This document shows positions 1 through 39,944 of a stretch of DNA of 64,000 bases, piece by piece. The DNA is from a virus (Duplodnaviria; Caudoviricetes), in IMG/VR virus record IMGVR_UViG_3300034126_000020, positions 192,001 through 256,000 of that record. The stretch is one strand, 5' to 3'. The position numbers and the translations under genes are program-made. The notes below the pieces were generated by a model, which saw only the letters and a program-made list of their open reading frames with translations, searched no databases and had not been told where the DNA came from. How positions within the stretch are numbered: position 1 is the stretch's first letter; the number at the start of each line of letters is the position of its first letter.

Positions 1-1819
1 TGATCATGATCTCTTTATCGACCATGAACCAATCGAGTTTCTCGATCAGCGGGAAACCATTCAACCAGATCTCCAACAACCCAGCTGGGATCTCCACCAA
101 GCCTTCGTAAAGAATGCCGTCAATGCGGATCTCTTTCACGTTCAGGCTGAACCGCAGCAATGCATCCGCGTAGTCCAACTCAAGGTTGTACGTCAGGAAC
201 GAGTCATCGAACTTGACCGCGGTGTAGAACATCTGCGGATTGACCTTCCACACCACTTCCCCTTCAATGAGGTCGTAGTGCGTGCCTTTGTCCGTGACGT
301 CGAACCAATCACCCGTAGGCAATGCGTTCTCAATCGGGCAGACGTAGCAGCGATAGGTCAGGCCTGCCTTGACCTTGGCATTCTTCCCGTAAACGGTCGT
401 CATCACGTCGGTACCACGGCCCACGATGCCCTCAATGTAGCGGCATGCTTCAGCACGAGGCACGTAGTTCTGCACGTTCTGGTTCAAGTACCAGCCCAAC
501 AGGCGACCACTGCCATCGTACTCGTAGACGGTGCTCTCACCACGCAGCCCGAACGGCAACTCCGTCCAAGCCTTGGGAGACGCGATCTTCTGCGGCGTGT
601 CAGCCACGATCCGAGTGATGGTGTTGTAGCCATAAGCGGCTTCGACCATCTCACGGGTGATGCCACCCGACGGGCTGCGCATCAAGGCGGTGTACTGAGA
701 CTTCTCCAGCTCCTCGATACGCCACACATCCACCACAGCCTCAGTACCGAGCACTGCGCCCAGCCAATCAGCGTCTTCGAGCTTGTACAGCTCTTTGATG
801 TGATGTGCTTCGCTCATCAGCGTACGATCCAGCCCAGAACGGCGAATGAACATCTGCACCGTGATCTGGTTGTTGACTGCCCAGTTGGGATTCTGGTTCA
901 GAAAGCGGTCCACTTGAGCCGTTGGAATGGAATAGTCGCGATGGGTGACCATGCGCAACGAATCCTCGACGTTCTTGTGGTAGTACACGCCCTTGTGAAT
1001 GTACGGGGTCTTCTTGTACATCAGGAAGATGTCTTGATCGTCCCGGTACCAGATGAGGTCGTCGTTGTTGACCTTTGGATGAAGCAAGTACTTCTGCTTC
1101 TGATCCATTTCCGACAGGAACACCGGAAGGTCTTTGACTTCGAACTCTTCGACGCGGATCACCGAGCTATCACGCACGATCTCAACAAGGTCACCCGTTT
1201 TCATGGTGCTCACGTTGAGTTCATTGACCCGCCAGCCATTCACGAAGGCAAAGCAGTAACCCGTCTTCAGGCGCATGTCCCGCAACTTGAACGTCAAGGC
1301 GTTGATCTGCGAACTGGAGGCCGGTTGAGCGTAGTGGTACTCAATGCCCGCGTACTGATCAATCGTGTCGTCACGATCGAAGAAGGCGTTGCTGTAGAAC
1401 CGGACGTAGACGTTCTCTTGACCAAAGTCACCGATGGTGAGCAGGTTCTCGATGGCGATCACGAGGTTGCCGTCGTCCGTATAAAGGAAGTACGCCAAAC
1501 GCCGAGGGATCATCAGACCCCGTTCGGTGTAGATGTCGATCAGCAGGATGGAGTCCACCATCTGGCTGCTGACCGCAGTCCACGTGTTTCGCTTCAGGTC
1601 AAGGTCCAGATTGCTCAGGGCGATGTTACCGAATTGGAACACATGGTAGCGTTCTTTTACAGTCGGGAGATTGAAGCGCGTCCATAGCACTTCAATACTT
1701 CCCCGAGCCCCGACTTTAGGGCTGATGCGTGCAGGACGAAGGATGTGCTGCCGGTCCTGCTCCGGTGCACACCACACGTTCTTGTACGCATGGTTGATCA
1801 GAAAATCATCGGAGGTCAT
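1..1819 (-). CDS. Virion structural protein, phiKZ gp27-like (3' end runs off the window)
   Basis: Absent from the ORF track because there is no stop in the window. Manual translation gives MTSDDFLINHAYKNVWCAPEQDRQHILRPARISPK..., an N-terminus typical of this family. The frame is still open at position 2. It sits next to gp28/sheath/tube-like genes. Confidence 0.7.
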   Translation of the reverse strand, partial: MTSDDFLINHAYKNVWCAPEQDRQHILRPARISPKVGARGSIEVLWTRFNLPTVKERYHVFQFGNIALSNLDLDLKRNTWTAVSSQMVDSILLIDIYTERGLMIPRRLAYFLYTDDGNLVIAIENLLTIGDFGQENVYVRFYSNAFFDRDDTIDQYAGIEYHYAQPASSSQINALTFKLRDMRLKTGYCFAFVNGWRVNELNVSTMKTGDLVEIVRDSSVIRVEEFEVKDLPVFLSEMDQKQKYLLHPKVNNDDLIWYRDDQDIFLMYKKTPYIHKGVYYHKNVEDSLRMVTHRDYSIPTAQVDRFLNQNPNWAVNNQITVQMFIRRSGLDRTLMSEAHHIKELYKLEDADWLGAVLGTEAVVDVWRIEELEKSQYTALMRSPSGGITREMVEAAYGYNTITRIVADTPQKIASPKAWTELPFGLRGESTVYEYDGSGRLLGWYLNQNVQNYVPRAEACRYIEGIVGRGTDVMTTVYGKNAKVKAGLTYRCYVCPIENALPTGDWFDVTDKGTHYDLIEGEVVWKVNPQMFYTAVKFDDSFLTYNLELDYADALLRFSLNVKEIRIDGILYEGLVEIPAGLLEIWLNGFPLIEKLDWFMVDKEIMI

Positions 1820-1840: not shown

Positions 1841-3151
1841 TCAGTCATTACCTGCGATGATCTCATCCAGGTACTTGCTGAAGGTGGTCTTCATTGGCGT
1901 TTCGCCAGACGGGCTCACTTCGTAGAGGTTGCCCTTGGAGTCGGCTGCAATGAACACCGAATCCACGCCCACGCTTTCGATCACGTACAGGCCTTTGGTC
2001 TTGAAGTACTTGCTGATCTCTTTGGTGCCAGCGATCACGTCGAGGTGACCAGCCTTCTGGCCCAAACCGTAGATCTCGTGACTACCCACCGACAACACGC
2101 CGAACTTCTTCAAGAAGGCCACGTAGTCAGGAGCAAACTTCACGCCCAGTTCTTTCTGTGCCAGATCCACTTCAGCCTGAGAAGCTGGAGCGTTGGATTC
2201 GAACGTTTCCATCGACACGGTCATCGGACGGATCTTGCCCGCCAAGGTTTCCATGGACTTCACGAAACCAGACAGGTTCGTTTCGTTCAAACCGATCTTC
2301 TGCACGAGGCTGCCGAGGCTGGTCTTGCGCCACACTTTCGCGTTAGCAGCAGACTCGATCAACGACAGGAACACCGGTGGGTATTCCAAGGCTACGCCGC
2401 AGATGGCTTCCTTGCCCCAACCGAACCACGAACGACCCAGGGACATGGTAATGAAACCCACGTTGACCTGAGTGATGCGGGTGTTGGAGGAGAAGTGAGC
2501 ACGCAGCACAGACACGAAGTCTTCCAGCAACGCCATGTACGGCGAGGTTTCAACGACGTTCTGAATGATCGCAATCGGGTGACGGGTCCAGCGCTGAAGC
2601 AATGCACAAGCGGTCCCTTTACCATAAGTCGACAGTGCTTCGTCTGCACCATAAAACTGATGGATGTAAAAAAGTCCCGTAATGATCTGAACCTCGCGTT
2701 GTGCTACTTCGTCGACGCCGAGCTTACCTGTGATGAGCCCAGCGACCCAAGCGATGTACACTTGGGGAGCCAAATCGCCCACACGCAGGAAGTCATCCCG
2801 CACAGAGCGGTCTTTAACCCACAACGCAGTCAACTCTCCCATGCGGACTACAAAGTCAGCTTGGGTTTGGTTAGCGACGATGAAGCCTGTAGCAGAGCGC
2901 TGTTCCTTGCGCATGAACGAACGACCGTCAGCAAACACGACGCCGTTTTCGTTCAGCTTACGACTGCCGTATTCCTCGGAAGTAATCGGCAGGACAAAGG
3001 CGTCAATCTTCTCGACAGCCGGTGTAACCAGAACAACAGCGGGACCGTCGGCGACCAACCCACCCATGGCTTTTGCCACGGCAAGTTCGCTGATAATTTC
3101 GCCAGTTCTGTGTTGGCGAAGTACGGTGGAGTTCCAGGGGCTGGTGATCAT
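1841..3151 (-). CDS. phiKZ gp28-like virion (minor capsid) protein with a C-terminal SMI1/KNR4 (SUKH) domain
   Basis: Start MITSPW with GAGG RBS; divergent from the sheath gene as in phiKZ-like phages. The last ~115 aa (ASQAEVDLAQKELGVKFAPDYVAFLKKFG...) match the SUKH pattern and follow VSME. Confidence 0.7.
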   Translation of the reverse strand: MITSPWNSTVLRQHRTGEIISELAVAKAMGGLVADGPAVVLVTPAVEKIDAFVLPITSEEYGSRKLNENGVVFADGRSFMRKEQRSATGFIVANQTQADFVVRMGELTALWVKDRSVRDDFLRVGDLAPQVYIAWVAGLITGKLGVDEVAQREVQIITGLFYIHQFYGADEALSTYGKGTACALLQRWTRHPIAIIQNVVETSPYMALLEDFVSVLRAHFSSNTRITQVNVGFITMSLGRSWFGWGKEAICGVALEYPPVFLSLIESAANAKVWRKTSLGSLVQKIGLNETNLSGFVKSMETLAGKIRPMTVSMETFESNAPASQAEVDLAQKELGVKFAPDYVAFLKKFGVLSVGSHEIYGLGQKAGHLDVIAGTKEISKYFKTKGLYVIESVGVDSVFIAADSKGNLYEVSPSGETPMKTTFSKYLDEIIAGND

Positions 3152-3317
3152 CTTCGACCTCTTCTGTCGCAACCAGTAAAAAATAACAAAATAGTATGTG
3201 GTGATGGTATCGAATACATCGAGTACCGAATCCTACGGTTTTTAAATGTAGGCAAGGGCCATACCATTCGTAACTTCACGCGCGAAGTTGATATTCTTTC
3301 CCATGGGAGACATGAAC

Positions 3318-5375
3318 ATGTCGTCTGTTTCGATGGCTTCGTCTTTGCCGAGAACGGAAGTTCTTGGTTTTAAAGATGTGAGCGGTCAGGGTCAACCGCT
3401 GGAGATCGTCAACCTGCCGATCTTCCTGCCCTGGACCCCGCTGTTCACATCCTGGGGTCCCTCCGACACCGCCATGCTGGTGAGTGGGGGTGGCTTCAGC
3501 ACTATTTACGGTGCGGACAACTTCTACCCTGGTTCGGCATTCCTGAGCCACCAAGGCGCCATGTTGCAGAAAGTCATGCAGACTGGTGCAATGGCCTTGG
3601 TCCGTCGACTGAAGGCAATTGGTGCTGCAACGGCCAACCTGCGTATCTGGGTTGACATGGTCGATGACAAGATCGATCAGTACGAGCGTAACCCGGACGG
3701 TACCTTCAAACGTACCAATGGTCAGCTCGTGGTTATCGGTGAGCCTGTGCTTGGCTACCGCCTGCGTTTCGTGGTCGAGAAGATCGACGGCGAAGACGGC
3801 GTGAAGAAAGCATCGCCGACCACCGGCACCATGACCAACTGGGACGGCAAACCGTCTACCCAGTACCCGCTGATGGATCTGGAAGCCCGTTTCGACGGCG
3901 CCAAGGGTTCCAACTTCGGTCTGCGTCTGGTTGCCCCAACCACCAACAGCTCGACTCCGGTCAACGCTGAACTGGTTGAAGGCCAAGGTGCGTACGTGTA
4001 CCGCCTGTCGATCCTGGAACGTGCAAGCGTCAACAGCACTGGCCAGGTCCGCATGAACCTCGACGGCAACCCGTTCGTTGAGTTCACGCTGAAGCAGGGT
4101 GTGGTCGATCCAAAGTCCAACCTGAACTACAGCTACGACAAGCGCATCCTCAAGGCGTTCGAAAATAACGACCCTGAAGTGTTCTCCGGTTACGGTCCGC
4201 TGAAGACGTTCCACGTCTACAACGCTCACCTCAAAACCGTGCTGGATGCCATCTACGCTACCGAGAAAGACTTCGGTCTGATCGAAAGCGAGATCACTCC
4301 TGAGCATTCGATCAACCTGTTCGGTGGTACCAACGTCAATGGCGTTCCGTACTACTCGGTCAAGATCGAAGGCCCATCGGCTGGTGGCGTGCTGTTCGGC
4401 GAAACCGCGACTCACTGGCTGCAAGGCGGTGAAGACGGTACCGTGACCCCTGAGTCTTACGACGAAGCGGTGAATGGCGAGCTGAACGTGTTCGGTGAAG
4501 GCGATGTGCCTTACGCTGACCGTGCAAGCTTCCCGATGTCCAGCTTCATCGACACCGGTTACACCCTGCCGACCAAGCGTCTGATGTCGAACGTCATGGC
4601 TGTGCGTCCCGACGCATGGGTACTGGCTTCCACCCAGGACGTTCTGGAGCCGTTGAACACTCCGGAAGAAGATTCGAGCATCGGCGCTACCCTGCGTAAC
4701 GCGCTGAGCTTGGTTCCTGAATCCGAGTTCTACAACACCGGCGCTTGCCGTGCTATCGTAATGAAGCACGCTGGTACCTACCTCGATTCCGAGTACGACG
4801 GTATCCTGCCGTTCACTGTGGACTTCGCGGTCAAGGTCGCTACCTACATGGGTGGCGAGCGCATGAAAGCAGGCTACGCGCCTGACGGCCAGGCTGGTCG
4901 CATTGTGACTCGATTCGTCGACCACAACGCCAAGTTCCGCCCAGTCAAGCCACGCAACACCGACTGGCAAGCTGGTATCAGCTCGGCAGAGCCCTTCGAC
5001 CACCGCGGTCAAGTGTTCTTCCCTGGTATCCAGACCGTCTACCACGACAACACGTCGGTCCTCAACTCGTTCTTCCCAATGGCGATCTGCTGCCACCTCA
5101 ACCGTATCGGTGAGTTGGCCTGGCGCATGTTCACTGGCGACAGCCGCATGACTGCTGCTGAATACGCCACGAACGTGGACCGCTTCATCGAAGAAGAGAT
5201 CAAGGATCGCTACGACGGTCGTGCGGACATCACCCCGAGTTCCTACTACACTGCGGCTGACACTCAGCGCGGCTACAGCTGGCACACGGACATCGAAGGT
5301 CTTTTCGACGGCATGAAGACGGTGGAAGTATTGACCGTTGTTGCTGGCCGTCGTCCTGGTACGGAGACTGAGTAA
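3318..5375 (+). CDS. Tail sheath protein (phiKZ gp29-like)
   Basis: ~685 aa, GGGAG RBS, N-terminal PRxxxxGxKDxS and P..LP motif, C-terminal sheath-like domain (AICCHLNRIGELAWRMFTG). Immediately upstream of the tube gene. Confidence 0.85.
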   Translation: MSSVSMASSLPRTEVLGFKDVSGQGQPLEIVNLPIFLPWTPLFTSWGPSDTAMLVSGGGFSTIYGADNFYPGSAFLSHQGAMLQKVMQTGAMALVRRLKAIGAATANLRIWVDMVDDKIDQYERNPDGTFKRTNGQLVVIGEPVLGYRLRFVVEKIDGEDGVKKASPTTGTMTNWDGKPSTQYPLMDLEARFDGAKGSNFGLRLVAPTTNSSTPVNAELVEGQGAYVYRLSILERASVNSTGQVRMNLDGNPFVEFTLKQGVVDPKSNLNYSYDKRILKAFENNDPEVFSGYGPLKTFHVYNAHLKTVLDAIYATEKDFGLIESEITPEHSINLFGGTNVNGVPYYSVKIEGPSAGGVLFGETATHWLQGGEDGTVTPESYDEAVNGELNVFGEGDVPYADRASFPMSSFIDTGYTLPTKRLMSNVMAVRPDAWVLASTQDVLEPLNTPEEDSSIGATLRNALSLVPESEFYNTGACRAIVMKHAGTYLDSEYDGILPFTVDFAVKVATYMGGERMKAGYAPDGQAGRIVTRFVDHNAKFRPVKPRNTDWQAGISSAEPFDHRGQVFFPGIQTVYHDNTSVLNSFFPMAICCHLNRIGELAWRMFTGDSRMTAAEYATNVDRFIEEEIKDRYDGRADITPSSYYTAADTQRGYSWHTDIEGLFDGMKTVEVLTVVAGRRPGTETE

Positions 5376-11275: not shown

Positions 11276-12523
11276 TCAGCTGCGGGAGTTCTTGCGTGCG
11301 TCTTTGGCCACACGCTCAGCCGCGAGGTTGATCTCACGGATGATGAAGTACAGCACGGTCACTGCGCCGTTCAGGCACTGCCAGCCGAGACGGGAGGTCT
11401 CGATGATAGCGCGTTGTACGCCCTGCGCATCGCCCGAACCCTGCACGTCTTTCTTCATGCGCACGGTCAGTGCTTTGTGCTCGGTCCACTTCTTCGGCGA
11501 GTTGGAACGCATTTGCTGGGTAGCGGTTGCAGCAGCCAGGAACTTGTCCAGCGCACCGGTCAGCTCTTCTACTTTGATGACCCGCTTACGAGAGCCCTCA
11601 ACCACCATCACGACGCCCGGATCGAAGATGAAGTCCACGAGGGTGCTCTTCGGCCAGCTCACGTTCAGGGAGCCGCCAGTGGACCAGTTCTTCAGGCCAT
11701 CAGGCGCGCCCTTGATGTCGAACTTCTTCACGTTCAGGCGACGGTTGCCCATGGTGAAGGTGTGGTCGAAGCGACGGTACACTTCGTCGATCTTCGGGTT
11801 GATGCCGTTGATCGCACTGATCGCCTTGTCAGCAGCGTCCTGGTCTTTCCAGTCAGCACGCATGGCAATGTCAGCCGCTTTCTTGGCGTCGTCAACCAGT
11901 TGGGTACCGAACTTGATCAGGTCGCCAATGATGCTGGCAGTTTCACCGGCAGCCTTTGGAATGTTGTCAGGAACGGAACCGTCAACACGGAAGGCGTAAA
12001 CCAGCGAACGACCGAACGCAGGAGTGATGGCCAGCTTGGCATGAGCCGAAGCGTAGTTCTTCAGGACAGAGACGTTGTCCTTCAGGTTTGGCACTTCACG
12101 GTTCAGCAAACCGATCTTGTCCCACAGGTCAGTCATGGAGTAGCTTTCCATGGCGACAGTGATCTGACCTTCCAGTGACGCGTTGATGCCACGGATCTGA
12201 GCAGCCAGTTCTTTGGCCTTAGGGCCCTGCTCAACGGACTCCAGAGACGCGGTGTTCACGGTGATGCCGTAACGGCCCATGACTGCCGAGACCAGTGCTG
12301 CTGCACTGTCCAGGGACTCCTGACTGACCAGAGTATCGCCATCAAGGACGACAGCGGTCTCTTCCAGGGTGTTCATGTCCTGCTCGAGTTCCAGACGGTC
12401 CTCGACGTAGCTGTCGGCCGACACTGGGTTCGACTCGTCGCGAAGCTGGTCCAGCAGCTCTTCGCTATTATCAGCACTTTCCTGCGACACTTTCAGCGCG
12501 GCAGTAAGAACGGAGTTTTTCAT
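11276..12523 (-). CDS. Internal head protein with acidic propeptide (prohead-protease substrate)
   Basis: Acidic N-terminal ~120 aa with repeated S/A-x-E motifs (VSQE twice, ASLE twice, AME), typical of phiKZ-like processed head proteins; upstream neighbours include the protease. Confidence 0.6.
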   Translation of the reverse strand: MKNSVLTAALKVSQESADNSEELLDQLRDESNPVSADSYVEDRLELEQDMNTLEETAVVLDGDTLVSQESLDSAAALVSAVMGRYGITVNTASLESVEQGPKAKELAAQIRGINASLEGQITVAMESYSMTDLWDKIGLLNREVPNLKDNVSVLKNYASAHAKLAITPAFGRSLVYAFRVDGSVPDNIPKAAGETASIIGDLIKFGTQLVDDAKKAADIAMRADWKDQDAADKAISAINGINPKIDEVYRRFDHTFTMGNRRLNVKKFDIKGAPDGLKNWSTGGSLNVSWPKSTLVDFIFDPGVVMVVEGSRKRVIKVEELTGALDKFLAAATATQQMRSNSPKKWTEHKALTVRMKKDVQGSGDAQGVQRAIIETSRLGWQCLNGAVTVLYFIIREINLAAERVAKDARKNSRS

Positions 12524-13825: not shown

Positions 13826-14623
13826 TTACCACCTCCAGGCGCTAGGAACGTAAACCCGGATTGGGCGTTCGATCTCAGCAATGAGGGACATCATGTTGTT
13901 GCCGGATTCAAAGCCCACGCCTGCACCTACGCCGACTGGATTGGCCAGTGCTTCTTTACGCAGTGCATCAGCGTAGAAGACGGTTTCCAGTTCTGCTTCT
14001 GGCATGTGGATCAGACCACCTGCTTCAGGAGCCGATTCCAGCGAAGGAGTCGCGTACTTCGAAGAGTTACGAATGCCCGGTTCGTTCACGGTGTCCCAGG
14101 TTACGATCTTCTTCAAGAACTTGGTCTTGACGCCACCGACGATCTTGTCTTCGGTGAAGGACCGGATGGAGAAGCAGACGTTCTCGTCACGGTTCTCCAG
14201 TTGACGGTCAAACCAGGCACTCTCTTTACCCGATGCACGAACTTCGCCGAGCACCATGGTGATAGCGCGGCCACGTTCGTCCTTGGCAGGATCGAGCATC
14301 AGGCGGCGCATGTGGAAGCAGACGTTCGGTTCGAAGATGTCGTTCACACGACCAAACCAAGCGAGCTGGTTCATGCCAGTCTGGAAGCGCGGGTGACCGC
14401 ACTCGCCACGCAGGGCATTGTTCTGGTTGATCATCCGCATCAGGCCGGCAGAGCCTTCCATCAGTTGACGACCTTCACGCTCATTGTAGAGCCAGCCAGC
14501 TTCGTTGAATGCACCAAGTGCACCCAGACGAACTTCGTAGTAACCGTTGTCGAGCTTCTTCAGGTCCCCAACCTTATTGATGCCCTTCAACACGTTACAC
14601 TGATAAATGATTCTTTGGTCCAT
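13826..14623 (-). CDS. Prohead (head maturation) serine protease, phiKZ gp175-like
   Basis: GECGHP (catalytic His), FSIRS (catalytic Ser), WDTVNEPG, and a C-terminal SLE autocleavage-type site. Confidence 0.9.
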   Translation of the reverse strand: MDQRIIYQCNVLKGINKVGDLKKLDNGYYEVRLGALGAFNEAGWLYNEREGRQLMEGSAGLMRMINQNNALRGECGHPRFQTGMNQLAWFGRVNDIFEPNVCFHMRRLMLDPAKDERGRAITMVLGEVRASGKESAWFDRQLENRDENVCFSIRSFTEDKIVGGVKTKFLKKIVTWDTVNEPGIRNSSKYATPSLESAPEAGGLIHMPEAELETVFYADALRKEALANPVGVGAGVGFESGNNMMSLIAEIERPIRVYVPSAWRW

Positions 14624-17026: not shown

Positions 17027-20000
17027 CTACTTGGTATCGTTGCTCATCCACATCTCTGCTGCCTTCTCGCCGATGGCGCGTTGGACAGAGATAGACATGC
17101 CGATCAGCAGGGCCGAACTTACGATACGGTCCATGACCGACTTAGCGCCGAAGACGGCATTGATCCGTGAACCGGATTTGGTTTCGTTGACACCGCTCAA
17201 GCGATGACCAACTACTGTCTTCATCTGGTTGCAGAACACTGCCTTGTCGCCGACACCCATGCCTTCACGGTGAGTGATGTAGACTTTGATTGCAACGTGA
17301 TCGAGTTCCAGACCGTTCCCGTCAATGCGAAGGGATTGGTCGACCTGACCTGTGACAACCGGTTTGCCGAGACGTTTGGACACCTTACGACGTTGTTTGT
17401 CGTGGGCAGTGACCAGCTCCAGTAGCGAGTCCGACATGTCGTCCGGGTCACCATGGTAGAACACCTCGATCTTCGAGACTTCGCCAACAGCACCTGCAAG
17501 AGGTGCAGCCGAGCCCATCTTGCGAAGGGTTTCAAGGTCTTCGTCCGAGAACAGTCCAGCTTCCGCCGTTACAGCATCTTCAATCGTGCATAGAATACTC
17601 GAGATGTCCGTGTGGTCGCCCTGTTTAACCAGGTTACGGATGTGCTGCCCGAATTGCACGACGATGGTCTTGACCTTTGTTACTTCCGACCCAAGCTGCC
17701 CGGCCAACCAATCATCGATTGCCGAGGAGTCTTCCAGTGTGTAGCCTGCTTCCATCAGAGCCGTACGTGCGATTACCCCAGCCTTCCACTGCACTTGACG
17801 TGGTTCGAACCGGCTCGGCTTAAAGAAGCCCGAGTTGAATTTCAAGATGTCGCCTGGCTTGACTTTGTCACCCAACTGGAAGGTGGTGTCTTGCTTCTGC
17901 GGGTAGACCGAACCGGCGGAGATGCCGTACTGGGTGGTCAGGTCCAGATGCTCGAAGGTACCGTCATCGTACGCCACGACCATGTGAGTGTCGGTGCGTT
18001 CAATCACTTCACCCGACTTGGTAGCCGGGACAGCAAAGATCTCATCAACACGGTGGGCCAACACGTGGTCATAGCCGGTGGAGATTGGAGACTCACGATA
18101 ACCGTCCGAAGAGATTACGTGCGATTGCTGGATACCAATGAAGTTCACCCGCTTCGGGTCGTCTCGGTCAGCGAATGGACTGATCAGGGCGGAGGTCGAG
18201 ACGATGTTAGCTGCCCCATCCGTTTCCTTATCGTAAGCCCGCACCGTACCGCGCACACTGGTGATGTTCGCGTTAGGAGACATGTAGGTAATAACCGCCA
18301 CGTCGCCGGAGTCTACGGTACTTTCCGAGATGAAGCCAATGTCGGATTCCTTGTACAGACGCGCCTCAGCAGTCATCGACCGGCTACTGCGGCCACCACG
18401 GCCACCGTAAGTGATGATCTCTTTCTGCTTGAGGTTTTGGATCGGGTTGATGTCATCGACAATGGCCGAAGCCGGGTCTTGTACGATGTTAGTCCAGACC
18501 TCGTGCGGCTTCATGGTCACTTGCGACGTAGCACCAGCACCACGCGAGTTGTAGACCCGGATGGACCGGACCAGCTCTGCGTAGATAGCGCCTGGGATAC
18601 GCTCGTAACCTTTCGCACGTTCTTGACCATCAACCAACCCATCAGCCCCTTCAACCTTCGTTGGGACGTAACGGGTGACCAGCATTTCTACAGCCCGAGT
18701 CAACAGCGGAATGAACTCGGTCGGTTCCTTCATCCACTCAAGGACGCCTTTGGTGATCGGGTCGACCCACATGGCATTCATGAGGTCCAGTTCACGCAAG
18801 TAGCGCAAGCCGATGCCGTTGGCTTCCAGAATGTTGAAGTACACATCCTTGTCGTTGAAGCTGTGACGGGAGAACTGACGGACGGACTTGTGGTAATGGA
18901 GGAAGCCAGCAAAGATCATGCTGTTCTTCACATCACTCTTTTCCATGACCAGCGTTTCATCGAGGAACTTGATGGCGTACTCATCGTCCGACATCTGTAC
19001 ACGGGTACCCAACGGCACTGCCCGGTAACGAGCCCCTGTCAGCTCCAGCAGGCCTTTCAGACCGAGCAGGTACGCCAGAGCGATACCGACCGGCATGACC
19101 TTACCGAAGATGCTGATCTCAGCCATGGAGACCGGTGACTTGTCCTTGTTCAAACCAAGGATGTCTTCGATCTGACCCAGTTCGCTGACCTGGTTGTTCT
19201 TGCTGTCGACCAAGTAGAACGCGCTTTCACGGTCCACCATGATGTAACGCTGGCCACGACGACCAACCACCACCATACCCTTGTGTTCTGCTTCAAGGGT
19301 CTCGACCAACTTCATGTCGAACAGGCGGCTACGCTCACGGTTCTTGTAGTCGAACCAGTAATGACCGTTCGCCTCAAAGCTCATCACCCGGCTACCGATC
19401 ACGGTGTACGCAGTCGGCAGGTCCAGCGAGTAGTCTGCCACGTTGGCAATCTTCACGTTGGTGATGGTGGTGTCACCTGGGTCCATGCCTTTAGCGATGA
19501 TCTGCTTGGCAATCCAGTTGTCGTAGTTGAACACAGCACGTTGCGAACGCTCAACGAAGAGCTTGCTGTAGTACGACGTCAGGGCGACACGAATGGCGTT
19601 GACCTTGCGGATCGGTACATCGGACTTCTGAGTCCGCAGGCGATACTTCTGGCCGTTGGAGGTGTACGAACCACGCTTGTCGACCACTGGCACCCGGAAG
19701 GAGATAGTGGACGGCTTGCCGGTGACCGGAGTCAACTGGACCTTGTGGATCTCGTAGTGACTGACCGCATCTTGCACGGTCTCGATCTCGTACCCAGTTA
19801 CAGCCACACCCGCTTTCTGCACGGACATAACGGCGTTCAGGATGTCGGACTTCATCACCTTTTCGATGTACTGACTGTCCATCTTCTCGACGGTCGACTG
19901 TAGCATCGATTTGTCACGCACCGATTCCATTTCTGGATACGGCTCAGATTCCTGAAGAACAAGGTCTTCCTGCTTGATGTCCAAGGACGTCTCAACAGTC

Positions 20001-21415
20001 TTCGACTTGTCCCACGGGTCTGGCATCGTCTTGTAGGATTCTGCCAGCCGTTGCATCCGGCGATACTGCGCTGCCGTCAGGATGTCCTTCTCCACCAACT
20101 CGTCGATCTTGCTTTGGATCGAACTGGTCAGGGTGTGTTCAGTTGCACCGTCAGCCACGATCTGCGAGACTTGAGCCACAGGCTCTGCACCGGTCTCAAT
20201 GACCAGTTCACCGTCTTCGTCTTCCATGATAGCGTCGGAGGTAGACACTGCTGGCTCGTCCAAAGACTCGGCCAGTTCTTCTTCCTCTTCTACCAGCATC
20301 TCGTCAGCACCCAATTCCTTACGGGCCTGTGCTTCTTGCTGCTTGTCTTCTTCGGCTTCAGCGGCATCGTCAGCGGCTGTGACCTGTTGCTGCGCTTCAG
20401 CCTCTTGAGGCGTGATCACCGCGACCGGGTTGGTCTGATCAATGATCTTGGTCAGCAACTTCAGGAATCGCACCTGTATGATCTTAGGATCAAGACCTTG
20501 CCCAGCTTCCATCGACACGCCCATGTCTTCGTCAAGGGTTTCATCCCCTGCGTTTTCCATGGAGACGTAACGCTGGTAAGTGTCTTCGAAGTCGAAGTCT
20601 TCACTCACCGGTTGTTCGACGAACGATTCCATCGACACGCCAACGCCTTGCTTACGCCAGCCGTTGAGCAGGCCGAGGTTCAGGCTGATCCAACCAGCGT
20701 CCTTACGGATAACCAGTTCGATCTCACTCAGGCGTGACTCATCCAGCTTGGCCATCGGTGCACGTTGACGGTTCTCACCCAACCAGATAAACAGGTCGAG
20801 CAAGTCCAGACGTTCACGCGTGTTGAACACCTGCATCAGCGTCGGAGTCATGCCCCGTTCAGCTTTACGCAGGTCAGACAACGCTGGCAGGGTCTGAGGC
20901 AGATCAAACAGGATGATGTGATGCCGTTCGTGTTCAGTCTTCAACTGATTGAACCGATCCCACTGAGTGGTCCTGAGGTTGCGCCAGTTCCACCAGCGAC
21001 TCAAGGCCGACCGTTGATACTTGTACATCTGCGCGACCATGGCGTAGTTGACTACGAGCATGTTCAGGGGTTCTTTTGCCGCTGCTTCATAATCCCGCAT
21101 TGGGCGGATGGTCATGTTCTCGCGACGGTACTGCTGCATCATTGGAGCGAGTTGCTTGAACGTGGAACGAGGGTTACCCTCCTTCGATAGCAGGTCAGGG
21201 ACATGGTCAATGAAGATCAGTCGCTGAGCCGCTTGAATGATCTGGCTGCCAGCAGCCGGACCCAGTTCGGTTTCATTCATCGGCATGTAGTGGACGTTGG
21301 CACCACGAGGCAAACCGAATCGTGCGATTGGTCTTACTCGTGGGTTCTCCAACTCTCCTAGCCTACGGATGCCGAACAGTTTCATGTAGCGGTCATACAG
21401 AAACATTACGGCCAT
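17027..21415 (-). CDS. rpoB: Virion RNA polymerase beta subunit, large N-terminal fragment (phiKZ gp178-like)
   Basis: 1462 aa with beta motifs GGRGGRS, ESTVDSGDV, DDPKRVNFIGIQQSH, GYTLEDS and GDKAVFCNQMKTV. Confidence 0.92.
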   Translation of the reverse strand: MAVMFLYDRYMKLFGIRRLGELENPRVRPIARFGLPRGANVHYMPMNETELGPAAGSQIIQAAQRLIFIDHVPDLLSKEGNPRSTFKQLAPMMQQYRRENMTIRPMRDYEAAAKEPLNMLVVNYAMVAQMYKYQRSALSRWWNWRNLRTTQWDRFNQLKTEHERHHIILFDLPQTLPALSDLRKAERGMTPTLMQVFNTRERLDLLDLFIWLGENRQRAPMAKLDESRLSEIELVIRKDAGWISLNLGLLNGWRKQGVGVSMESFVEQPVSEDFDFEDTYQRYVSMENAGDETLDEDMGVSMEAGQGLDPKIIQVRFLKLLTKIIDQTNPVAVITPQEAEAQQQVTAADDAAEAEEDKQQEAQARKELGADEMLVEEEEELAESLDEPAVSTSDAIMEDEDGELVIETGAEPVAQVSQIVADGATEHTLTSSIQSKIDELVEKDILTAAQYRRMQRLAESYKTMPDPWDKSKTVETSLDIKQEDLVLQESEPYPEMESVRDKSMLQSTVEKMDSQYIEKVMKSDILNAVMSVQKAGVAVTGYEIETVQDAVSHYEIHKVQLTPVTGKPSTISFRVPVVDKRGSYTSNGQKYRLRTQKSDVPIRKVNAIRVALTSYYSKLFVERSQRAVFNYDNWIAKQIIAKGMDPGDTTITNVKIANVADYSLDLPTAYTVIGSRVMSFEANGHYWFDYKNRERSRLFDMKLVETLEAEHKGMVVVGRRGQRYIMVDRESAFYLVDSKNNQVSELGQIEDILGLNKDKSPVSMAEISIFGKVMPVGIALAYLLGLKGLLELTGARYRAVPLGTRVQMSDDEYAIKFLDETLVMEKSDVKNSMIFAGFLHYHKSVRQFSRHSFNDKDVYFNILEANGIGLRYLRELDLMNAMWVDPITKGVLEWMKEPTEFIPLLTRAVEMLVTRYVPTKVEGADGLVDGQERAKGYERIPGAIYAELVRSIRVYNSRGAGATSQVTMKPHEVWTNIVQDPASAIVDDINPIQNLKQKEIITYGGRGGRSSRSMTAEARLYKESDIGFISESTVDSGDVAVITYMSPNANITSVRGTVRAYDKETDGAANIVSTSALISPFADRDDPKRVNFIGIQQSHVISSDGYRESPISTGYDHVLAHRVDEIFAVPATKSGEVIERTDTHMVVAYDDGTFEHLDLTTQYGISAGSVYPQKQDTTFQLGDKVKPGDILKFNSGFFKPSRFEPRQVQWKAGVIARTALMEAGYTLEDSSAIDDWLAGQLGSEVTKVKTIVVQFGQHIRNLVKQGDHTDISSILCTIEDAVTAEAGLFSDEDLETLRKMGSAAPLAGAVGEVSKIEVFYHGDPDDMSDSLLELVTAHDKQRRKVSKRLGKPVVTGQVDQSLRIDGNGLELDHVAIKVYITHREGMGVGDKAVFCNQMKTVVGHRLSGVNETKSGSRINAVFGAKSVMDRIVSSALLIGMSISVQRAIGEKAAEMWMSNDTK

Positions 21416-39107: not shown

Positions 39108-39944
39108 ATGTGGATGACCACCGACTACCAAACCGCCCTCGACACCGTATCCATGGAAGACTTGCAGAACCTTGCCCGTGTCATCTCCATGGAAAGTTCA
39201 GTTGTACCCACCTTCACCATTGACTCGAAGCAGCGCTTCGGTCAGTTCTTCAAGCGTGCTGGCACCTTCTTCAGCGCAATGAAGATGCCGTTCCTGGCTG
39301 GCGTCAAGTTGTTCTCCAACGACATGGATGGCCTCGTTGGCAAAGTTGGCTTCGTCGACGCCGCTAACAAGAACGTCATCGTCCCTGAAGGCTTCATCGG
39401 CCTGTGGTTGCCTTACTCTGCCCTCCTGAACGAGGCCATGGGTCGTGCGGTTAAAACCGAATACATGATCCGTAGCTTCAACGAGACACTGGGTCAGTTG
39501 GCTAACGATCCAATGATCCTTGAATCGGCATCGGGCATTGGCTACAGCGGTCCGACTGATCTGGGTCTGACCACCAGCATGCAAGATGCAGGTAAAACCT
39601 ACTTCGACGGTAACAGCAACAACATCACCCGCACCCTCGGTGCTGTGGTAGAACGTGCTGCTGACATCCGCGCGGTACACAACAACATCAACGACGCCAT
39701 TGCCAAGGACAAAGCTCACCCAGCGTCCAAGTCTCTGGCAGCTGTACAGCGCTCCATGGAGCTGTCTGAGAAGCTCATGCCTTACGTGGAAGGTAACTCC
39801 CGCGTGTCCAAGGCTTCGATCCAGGAGCTGATCGACATCACCTTGCAGATCGCCAAGGAGATGGAATCGTACGGCGTGTTGCTGTTCCGTATCCGCCAGT
39901 TCTCTGAAGCACTGAAAGACAGCGTCAAAGAGCTGAAAAAATAA
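39108..39944 (+). CDS. Processed head protein (SME motifs)
   Basis: N-terminal VSME and ISME prohead-protease-type sites. Confidence 0.55.
   Translation: MWMTTDYQTALDTVSMEDLQNLARVISMESSVVPTFTIDSKQRFGQFFKRAGTFFSAMKMPFLAGVKLFSNDMDGLVGKVGFVDAANKNVIVPEGFIGLWLPYSALLNEAMGRAVKTEYMIRSFNETLGQLANDPMILESASGIGYSGPTDLGLTTSMQDAGKTYFDGNSNNITRTLGAVVERAADIRAVHNNINDAIAKDKAHPASKSLAAVQRSMELSEKLMPYVEGNSRVSKASIQELIDITLQIAKEMESYGVLLFRIRQFSEALKDSVKELKK

Follow-up and report, generated by a model that had tools for sequence, protein, structure and literature searches.

Why would a jumbo phage build an immunity domain into one of its capsid proteins? The question arises at positions 1841..3151 (− strand) of a 64,000-nucleotide stretch of viral DNA (the window; positions 192,001 to 256,000 of IMG/VR record IMGVR_UViG_3300034126_000020), where a gene of 436 aa plus stop (open reading frame and translation) encodes a gp28-type vertex-binding capsid protein fused to a SUKH (SMI1/KNR4) domain. 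An earlier note on this locus had placed a prohead-protease-type site between the two parts and had suggested that the fusion is a hitch-hiking route for loading the SUKH domain into the head. The reading we prefer, to which we give a probability of about 0.58, is that gp28 acts as a carrier and that the SUKH domain is an inhibitor, which the protease would release and which would then be ejected.

The window is one part of a complete virus record of 276,810 bp with terminal repeats. The phage is a phiKZ-like, nucleus-forming jumbo phage, and its closest deposited relative is Pseudomonas phage pPa_SNUABM_DT01 (DT01), with ~62% protein identity for the fusion gene. The stop codon of the gene is at 1841-1843. 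A longer open frame runs from 1841 to 3172 (− strand; the 443-aa reading), and we assigned the start to the ATG at 3151 (MITSPW...) because the alignment to the DT01 homologue PA10_00110 and the database protein P0002 agree on it. A sequencing or assembly artefact could be discarded, as the same architecture is found in at least 17 independent metagenomic protein clusters and three IMG/VR contigs.

The first 305 residues (2237..3151, − strand) form a helix-rich phiKZ gp28 domain, recognised by Pfam, PHROG, Foldseek and phmmer. The Pfam family PhiKZ_VTX (PF25614) matched residues 8-310 of the 443-aa reading with an E-value of 2e-66 and a score of 224.7 bits against a cut-off of 27, covering profile positions 1-300 of 303, and the PHROG match was phrog_3227 (E 4e-44). 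Compared with chain D of 8Y6V, which is gp28 in the phiKZ capsid, the domain gave a Foldseek E-value of 3.5e-12 with a template modelling (TM) score of 0.82 normalised to the target, and a phmmer E-value of 3e-14 by sequence. The gp28-like identity proposed for this protein is therefore upheld by a full-length family match as well as by fold. In phiKZ, gp28 lines the inside of the capsid at its vertices (PMC11297242), and by homology the carrier would take this position here. The genome of the phage also encodes a homologue of gp91, one of the proteins that gp28 contacts (PF25618, E 5e-27).

The cargo domain follows at 1844..2188 (− strand), where Pfam, the structural model and Foldseek all recognise a SUKH fold. 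The SUKH_5, SUKH_6 and SMI1_KNR4 models span approximately residues 325-417. When the C-terminal 121 aa were scanned alone, PF14567, PF14568 and PF09346 scored 43.5, 30.8 and 29.0 bits, respectively, all above the curated cut-offs; the last two are the families for which the earlier note had proposed a profile check. The AlphaFold model of the whole protein, built with 22 homologues, shows a helical domain at 1-305, a predicted local distance difference test (pLDDT) value below 50 at 309-319, and a compact alpha/beta domain at 325-433. The second domain of this model matched 2icg, YobK (2prv) and 3d5p in Foldseek. A separate model of the SUKH part reached a pLDDT of 92 and matched the same three structures with a probability of 1.0 each and TM scores of 0.71-0.80, the value for Bacillus subtilis YobK being 0.80. 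Profile and fold matches agree, and the claim of a SUKH fold stands.

The two domains are joined by a disordered linker (residues 306-321; 2189..2236, − strand), which is variable in relatives. It contains the motif V-S-M-E (2207..2218, − strand; GTG TCG ATG GAA read directly at 2218..2207), followed by TFESNAP exactly as had been reported. The predicted cut falls between E315 and TFESNAP and would free residues 316-436, a fragment of 121 aa and 13.0 kDa with an isoelectric point (pI) of 5.1. Across 22 distinct fused or remnant sequences the linkers differ in length and cannot be aligned except for [V/I/A/F]-S-x-E, the S and E of which are invariant in all 22. Where a DUF6985 domain follows the SUKH domain in relatives (see below), the junction bears VSLE or VSQE. 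The upstream KSME (nt 2249-2257) was considered as a second, tandem cleavage site and rejected, as it lies within the last gp28 helix and is kept in unfused homologues too; it is probably structural. We found no report of gp28 cleavage in the phiKZ literature searched.

To see how the motif behaves in the phage as a whole, we called 283 genes with a codon-usage filter and used within-protein shuffles as the null. VSME was observed 11 times against 0.7 expected (z 13, 15-fold over-represented), SME 34 times against 9.9 (z 7.6) and VS.E 50 times against 22.6 (z 5.9). The control motifs VA.E, VG.E and VS.D and the reversed motif showed no enrichment in the same 283 proteins. The S-x-E-type sites cluster within the first 20-300 residues of the major capsid protein (MCP) and other head or virion proteins, and VSME gathers in the propeptides of the head proteins. 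Other site-bearing proteins are three phiKZ_IP-type inner-body paralogues, the phrog_3004 head protein, the gp89 homologue and the virion RNA polymerase beta-type subunit (17027..21415, − strand; phrog_3148), which has three VSME within 45 residues (260-304). Cleavage of the phiKZ MCP has been mapped experimentally to Glu163|Asn164 (PMC11297242), and this VGLE163|N164 aligns gap-free with PSME140|A141 of the MCP encoded here; the first modelled residue of capsid chain 36za, from another chimallivirus, maps to the same point. The published consensus is S/A-x-E for the phiKZ protease (PMC9026906) and A-x-E, with Val favoured at P4, for that of SPN3US (PMC10052503). Because the motif enrichment, the MCP alignment and the published consensus sequences agree, the linker site is, judged by motif, this phage's own best protease consensus in an exposed position.

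The linker would be cut by a homologue of the head maturation protease gp175, which is encoded at 13826..14623 (− strand). It was detected by a search of the phage's own genome with PHIKZ175 (E 3e-29, 34% identity across residues 16-213), and only with this query, as the T4-type protease model PF03420 gave no match. Cleavage after VSME by this homologue is, on the motif evidence, likely. The site had been called protease-type in the earlier note, and it has since proved to be conserved in the linker, enriched in head proteins and aligned to the mapped site of the phiKZ MCP.

Similar sites were also seen in other proteins. One gene away from the protease gene, a 415-aa protein (11276..12523, − strand) without any PHROG or Pfam match contains four [VA]S[QL]E within residues 1-120; by its motifs it is likely a substrate of the protease and could be scaffold or inner-body-like. 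A 278-aa protein (39108-39944, + strand) belongs to phrog_4682, a family of unknown function. Among deposited genomes, DT01 and a single Burkholderia jumbo phage are the only ones that have this protein. It has VSME at residue 14, ISME at 26 and SME at 216, which suggests that it is probably another processed virion protein. Outside the window, the 1321-aa head protein L011 (G000:266543-270508, − strand) has four VS.E/AS.E at residues 167-314. Its phrog_3004 profile stops at residue 958, and the ~360 C-terminal residues are without family match; it could be another carrier with unrecognised cargo.

Whether the SUKH domain belongs to gp28 in general was examined in its homologues. In a search of 5.8 billion proteins we found 36 relatives, about half of which are ~311 aa long without extension, the others being fused to SUKH with 42-83% overall identity. 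IMG/VR adds three fused phages and many unfused ones. The gp28 proteins of phiKZ (320 aa) and DT01 (311 aa) are both without SUKH, as are 18 of the 35 close homologues placed in the gp28 tree, and the SUKH part is absent from deposited phage genomes (tblastn against 50,697 phage records gave nothing). The maximum-likelihood tree of the gp28 domain requires at least three changes of SUKH state. A universal structural role of SUKH in gp28 is therefore out, and the domain is lineage-specific, as the earlier note had expected of an alignment with gp28 orthologues. In two IMG/VR sequences (L026, at L026:3380-3580, and L033) gp28 ends with ...RRASLEAF and a stop; the linker is kept, the middle of SUKH is deleted and the last ~35 SUKH codons are still recognisable downstream of the stop, a decayed cargo. 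A further sequence, L032, retains V-S-F-E followed by a nine-residue stub.

Such losses could be expected if the SUKH domain were a functionless passenger, a recent accidental fusion tolerated at the free C-terminus of gp28, and the many relatives without SUKH together with the two decayed copies fit this idea. Yet homologues with as little as 42% identity still have the fusion, the linker site does not vary and replacement cassettes are kept intact. In the closest relatives the SUKH part is 77-93% identical and the carrier 67-82%, which means that the cargo is conserved as much as the carrier and that purifying selection is already seen. We consider a passenger very improbable.

The cargo is also exchanged. 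Four clusters of 569-604 aa have a third domain after SUKH, and in P0021 this domain follows gp28 directly, with no SUKH between. It matches DUF6985, albeit weakly. As cellular DUF6985 domains are fused to SUKH and to Tli4_C, and via SUKH stand alongside PoNi immunity domains, the third domain looks immunity-type too. In the gp28 tree, a SUKH-only protein is sister to a DUF6985-only protein with support of 98/93. From the unfused, decayed and DUF6985-swapped forms and from the tree it follows that the cargo is dispensable for head building and has been gained, lost and exchanged. One case is the pair P0030 and P0032, in which the gp28 domain is 98% identical and DUF6985 ~95%, while most of the SUKH core is different. 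Their contigs (L047 and L048) share 86-100% DNA identity over 3.9 kb except for ~300 nt at 38-55%, and this segment (L047:1700-1980 compared with L048) is exactly the SUKH core, a clean cassette replacement within a capsid gene. Allele swapping of this kind is typical of polymorphic toxin/immunity loci, and it speaks for a binding partner that lies outside the phage and changes fast.

The same SUKH domain was found on a second carrier. In the 247-kb compost contig of P0038, a homologue of the phiKZ inner-body/head protein gp89 bears a SUKH domain that is 78% identical, inserted in the variable N-terminal propeptide immediately behind a conserved ASME and followed by TSME; the gp89 homologue of the window phage has the same SME site and no insert. 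In phiKZ, gp89 remains in the head at infection (10.1101/2024.03.24.586471), and the capsid-bound gp28 should do likewise. If both carriers stay in the head, the cargo could leave only if cut free, and protease-type sites stand exactly there. Moreover, fluorescent proteins joined to the C-termini of phiKZ head proteins enter the virion and are injected (10.1101/2024.03.24.586471), from which it appears that head and tail tolerate such passengers. The insert in gp89 and the use of the same gp28 slot by DUF6985 give independent support to the hitch-hiking route of loading suggested before. A further protein from the profile search, P0043 (572 aa), has an N-terminal DUF7211 motif (GIKGMKWGVW) followed by two SUKH domains, and may be a separate, unrelated SUKH fusion to a mobile-element protein.

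That gp28 and gp89 are both retained in the phiKZ head can also be taken to mean that SUKH works inside the particle, where, tethered or freed, it would bind a head component and load or silence a partner as an adaptor or internal inhibitor. SUKH domains are modules that bind other proteins (PMC3113570), and in phage P1 the Dar proteins, which occupy the same inner penton-hexon position, organise how other proteins are loaded (PMC12810830). A tethered function, however, needs no conserved cleavage site, the closest relatives share these head genes and have no SUKH, and the cassette replacement in near-identical phages points to a target that is external and changes fast. An in-particle role is in our opinion unlikely, and one more observation against it comes from the search for possible targets.

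For the target, we ran a profile of the phage SUKH domains against 1.84 billion representatives and recovered a large family of ~130-aa standalone proteins. In the three nearest standalone clusters with readable context (P0044, P0045 and P0047), an LHH (PF14411) nuclease toxin is encoded immediately upstream at every locus, and P0042 joins two SUKH domains to an LHH domain, which is of the HNH/EndoVII fold. Cellular relatives of the cargo are thus encoded beside a cognate toxin gene, a feature absent from the window phage: its 277-kb genome gave no match to LHH, HNH, Endonuclease_7 or DUF6985. Self-immunity against a phage-borne nuclease could be rejected on this basis, and a partner inside the particle loses support as well, since no LHH, HNH or EndoVII protein is there to be bound. 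Without a partner nuclease in the genome, SUKH appears as an orphan immunity module aimed outside the phage. We regard an LHH-type target as a moderate lead, drawn from gene neighbourhoods; the target could be a host nuclease of the abortive-infection or restriction type, or a toxin from neighbouring bacteria. Recent capture of the domain from a host was rejected, as there are no close standalone homologues and the nearest cellular relatives, in rumen and gut Bacteroidota and Firmicutes, are ~30-35% identical.

The kinship with LHH immunity proteins also suits a role late in the producing cell, where SUKH would protect against nuclease toxins of neighbours or a suicide effector of the host, as orphan immunity domains do against polymorphic toxins. 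Here the fusion would merely give late and high expression together with the structural genes, and the protease would discard the domain, cleaved propeptides being normally cleared from heads (PMC10052503). For this purpose a free-standing gene would be simpler, yet no close standalone SUKH copy was found among the proteins of 65-209 aa searched, nor did the tblastn search described above return any. In two different carriers SUKH sits where protease sites would release it within the shell, and late expression leaves the early stage of infection unprotected. Such a late role seems quite unlikely to us.

In the preferred reading, the gp28 carrier with its SUKH inhibitor would act as follows. 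The gp28 part would join the vertex-binding complex inside the procapsid, at ~55 copies per head assuming the stoichiometry of phiKZ, bringing SUKH inside the shell; that the fusion is built into the procapsid on gp28 is very probable. The gp175-type protease would then cut the linker after V-S-M-E and free the folded 13-kDa SUKH domain, which would stay in the head with the DNA and enter the cell at ejection. For this retention and ejection we see about an even chance. The ejected domain would bind and block a toxin-type effector before phage gene expression, and inhibition of a toxin-type nuclease is somewhat favoured; the most likely target would be an HNH/EndoVII (LHH-like) DNase, either the host's own or one from bacteria nearby.

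Several points weigh against this reading. The gp28 homologue of coliphage Goslar was not seen in the capsid map, and the inner-vertex position may thus not hold across chimalliviruses. The predicted cleavage is read from motifs, and S-x-E by itself is not a strong motif; the SUKH fold, too, contains a conserved G-S-H-E. In SPN3US, all mapped cuts in substrates, except the protease's own, remove an N-terminal propeptide (PMC10052503), and a freed C-terminal globular domain would be unusual given this pattern, though phiKZ gp93 and gp162 come close. The free 13-kDa domain, acidic as it is (pI 5.1), might leave the procapsid before packaging or be unable to pass the tail. As to the target, the LHH-linked relatives are ~30-35% identical and come from Bacteroidota and Firmicutes, and the LHH toxins matched no PADLOC defence model. 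Neither PADLOC nor NCBIfam gave a match for the fusion, for the DUF6985 domain or for the LHH toxins.

Phages T4 and P1 package anti-restriction proteins, and phiKZ injects inner-body proteins. The design recalls that of T4 IPI*, an inhibitor of a type IV restriction enzyme, which is directed to the core, released by gp21 and then ejected (PMC9026906). As with the internal proteins that carry a capsid-targeting sequence (IPI, IPII, IPIII and Alt), a small folded nuclease inhibitor would be placed in the prohead, cut free by a protease after Glu, retained and then ejected with the DNA, steps that are established in T4 and predicted here. The repertoire of T4 internal proteins also varies between related phages (PMC9026906), like that of the cargo described here. 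The T4 address, however, is an N-terminal peptide of 10-19 residues that binds the scaffolding core, whereas here it is a whole structural protein (the 305-aa gp28 domain, or gp89 in the relative), and no short N-terminal capsid-targeting sequence of the T4 type was found. Unlike in T4, the cargo stands at the C-terminus or within the carrier, and its fold is not an orphan one but that of a polymorphic-toxin immunity family.

The P1 proteins DarA and Hdf are likewise anti-defence proteins, present in 55 copies in the inner capsid at penton-hexon junctions and absent after ejection (PMC12810830), a location and copy number that equal those expected for gp28. The Dar proteins differ in that they are themselves capsid-bound, have no relation in sequence or fold, contain no SUKH and have no modular cargo behind a protease site. 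Nearer to the phage are phiKZ gp93 and gp162, from the same phage family and with the same protease, in which an S/A/G-x-E cut parts a capsid-bound N-terminus from a free C-terminal domain (PMC11297242), and gp93 is injected (10.1101/2024.03.24.586471). Their freed domains, in contrast, are native inner-body folds (PF12699), and in the present phage it is the vertex protein gp28 that serves as carrier.

From the side of the cargo, the MuF toxins of temperate phages offer a parallel, as they too have a capsid-internal head protein with a variable, recombining C-terminal cassette drawn from the toxin/immunity repertoire (PMC12226406). Differently from MuF, the cargo here is immunity and not toxin, no partner gene is adjacent, the phage is lytic and of jumbo size, and the cargo has protease sites at its flanks. 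Pfam found no MuF domain in the fusion, and the downstream gene is an 856-aa structural gene rather than an immunity gene. Bacterial SUKH proteins such as YobK and the polyimmunity fusions share the fold and the Pfam families, cellular SUKH being combined with DUF6985, Tli4_C or PoNi; the phage SUKH differs from them by standing without a toxin neighbour and by being joined to a capsid protein. Four features set the present case apart: which protein is the carrier, where in it the cargo stands, that sites lie at both ends of the cargo, and that polymorphic-toxin immunity domains are what is carried. Full-text literature searches for SUKH/SMI1 with phage capsid, jumbo phage or anti-defence gave no description of this arrangement.

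A broader version of the preferred reading, which we hold tentatively and at somewhat less than even odds, is a clade-wide "cargo slot" system, in which gp28 and gp89 would carry exchangeable SUKH/DUF6985 cassettes, alone or in tandem and bracketed by S-x-E, as pre-loaded inhibitors to be injected. If true, the inhibitors would cover the minutes before phage protein synthesis and the formation of the nucleus, a counter-defence mirror image of the MuF toxins. Should the release and ejection of SUKH be confirmed, it would represent a natural modular route by which jumbo phages load counter-defence proteins into the virion, with a concrete target class, the LHH/HNH-type DNases, already indicated. 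Swapping of the SUKH cassette could explain differences in host range among near-identical phages. The gp28 C-terminus and the gp89 propeptide are natural sites tolerant of foreign domains and would be useful for studying delivered proteins.

The neighbours of the fusion gene are structural genes. The sheath gene (gp29; 3288-5372) adjoins it and is divergently transcribed, an order common to DT01 and relatives. In the window we also noticed long antisense open reading frames opposite real genes, such as that at 2-1687 (+ strand; 561 aa) opposite a phrog_3184 gene, which are composition artefacts of a genome with 54% GC.

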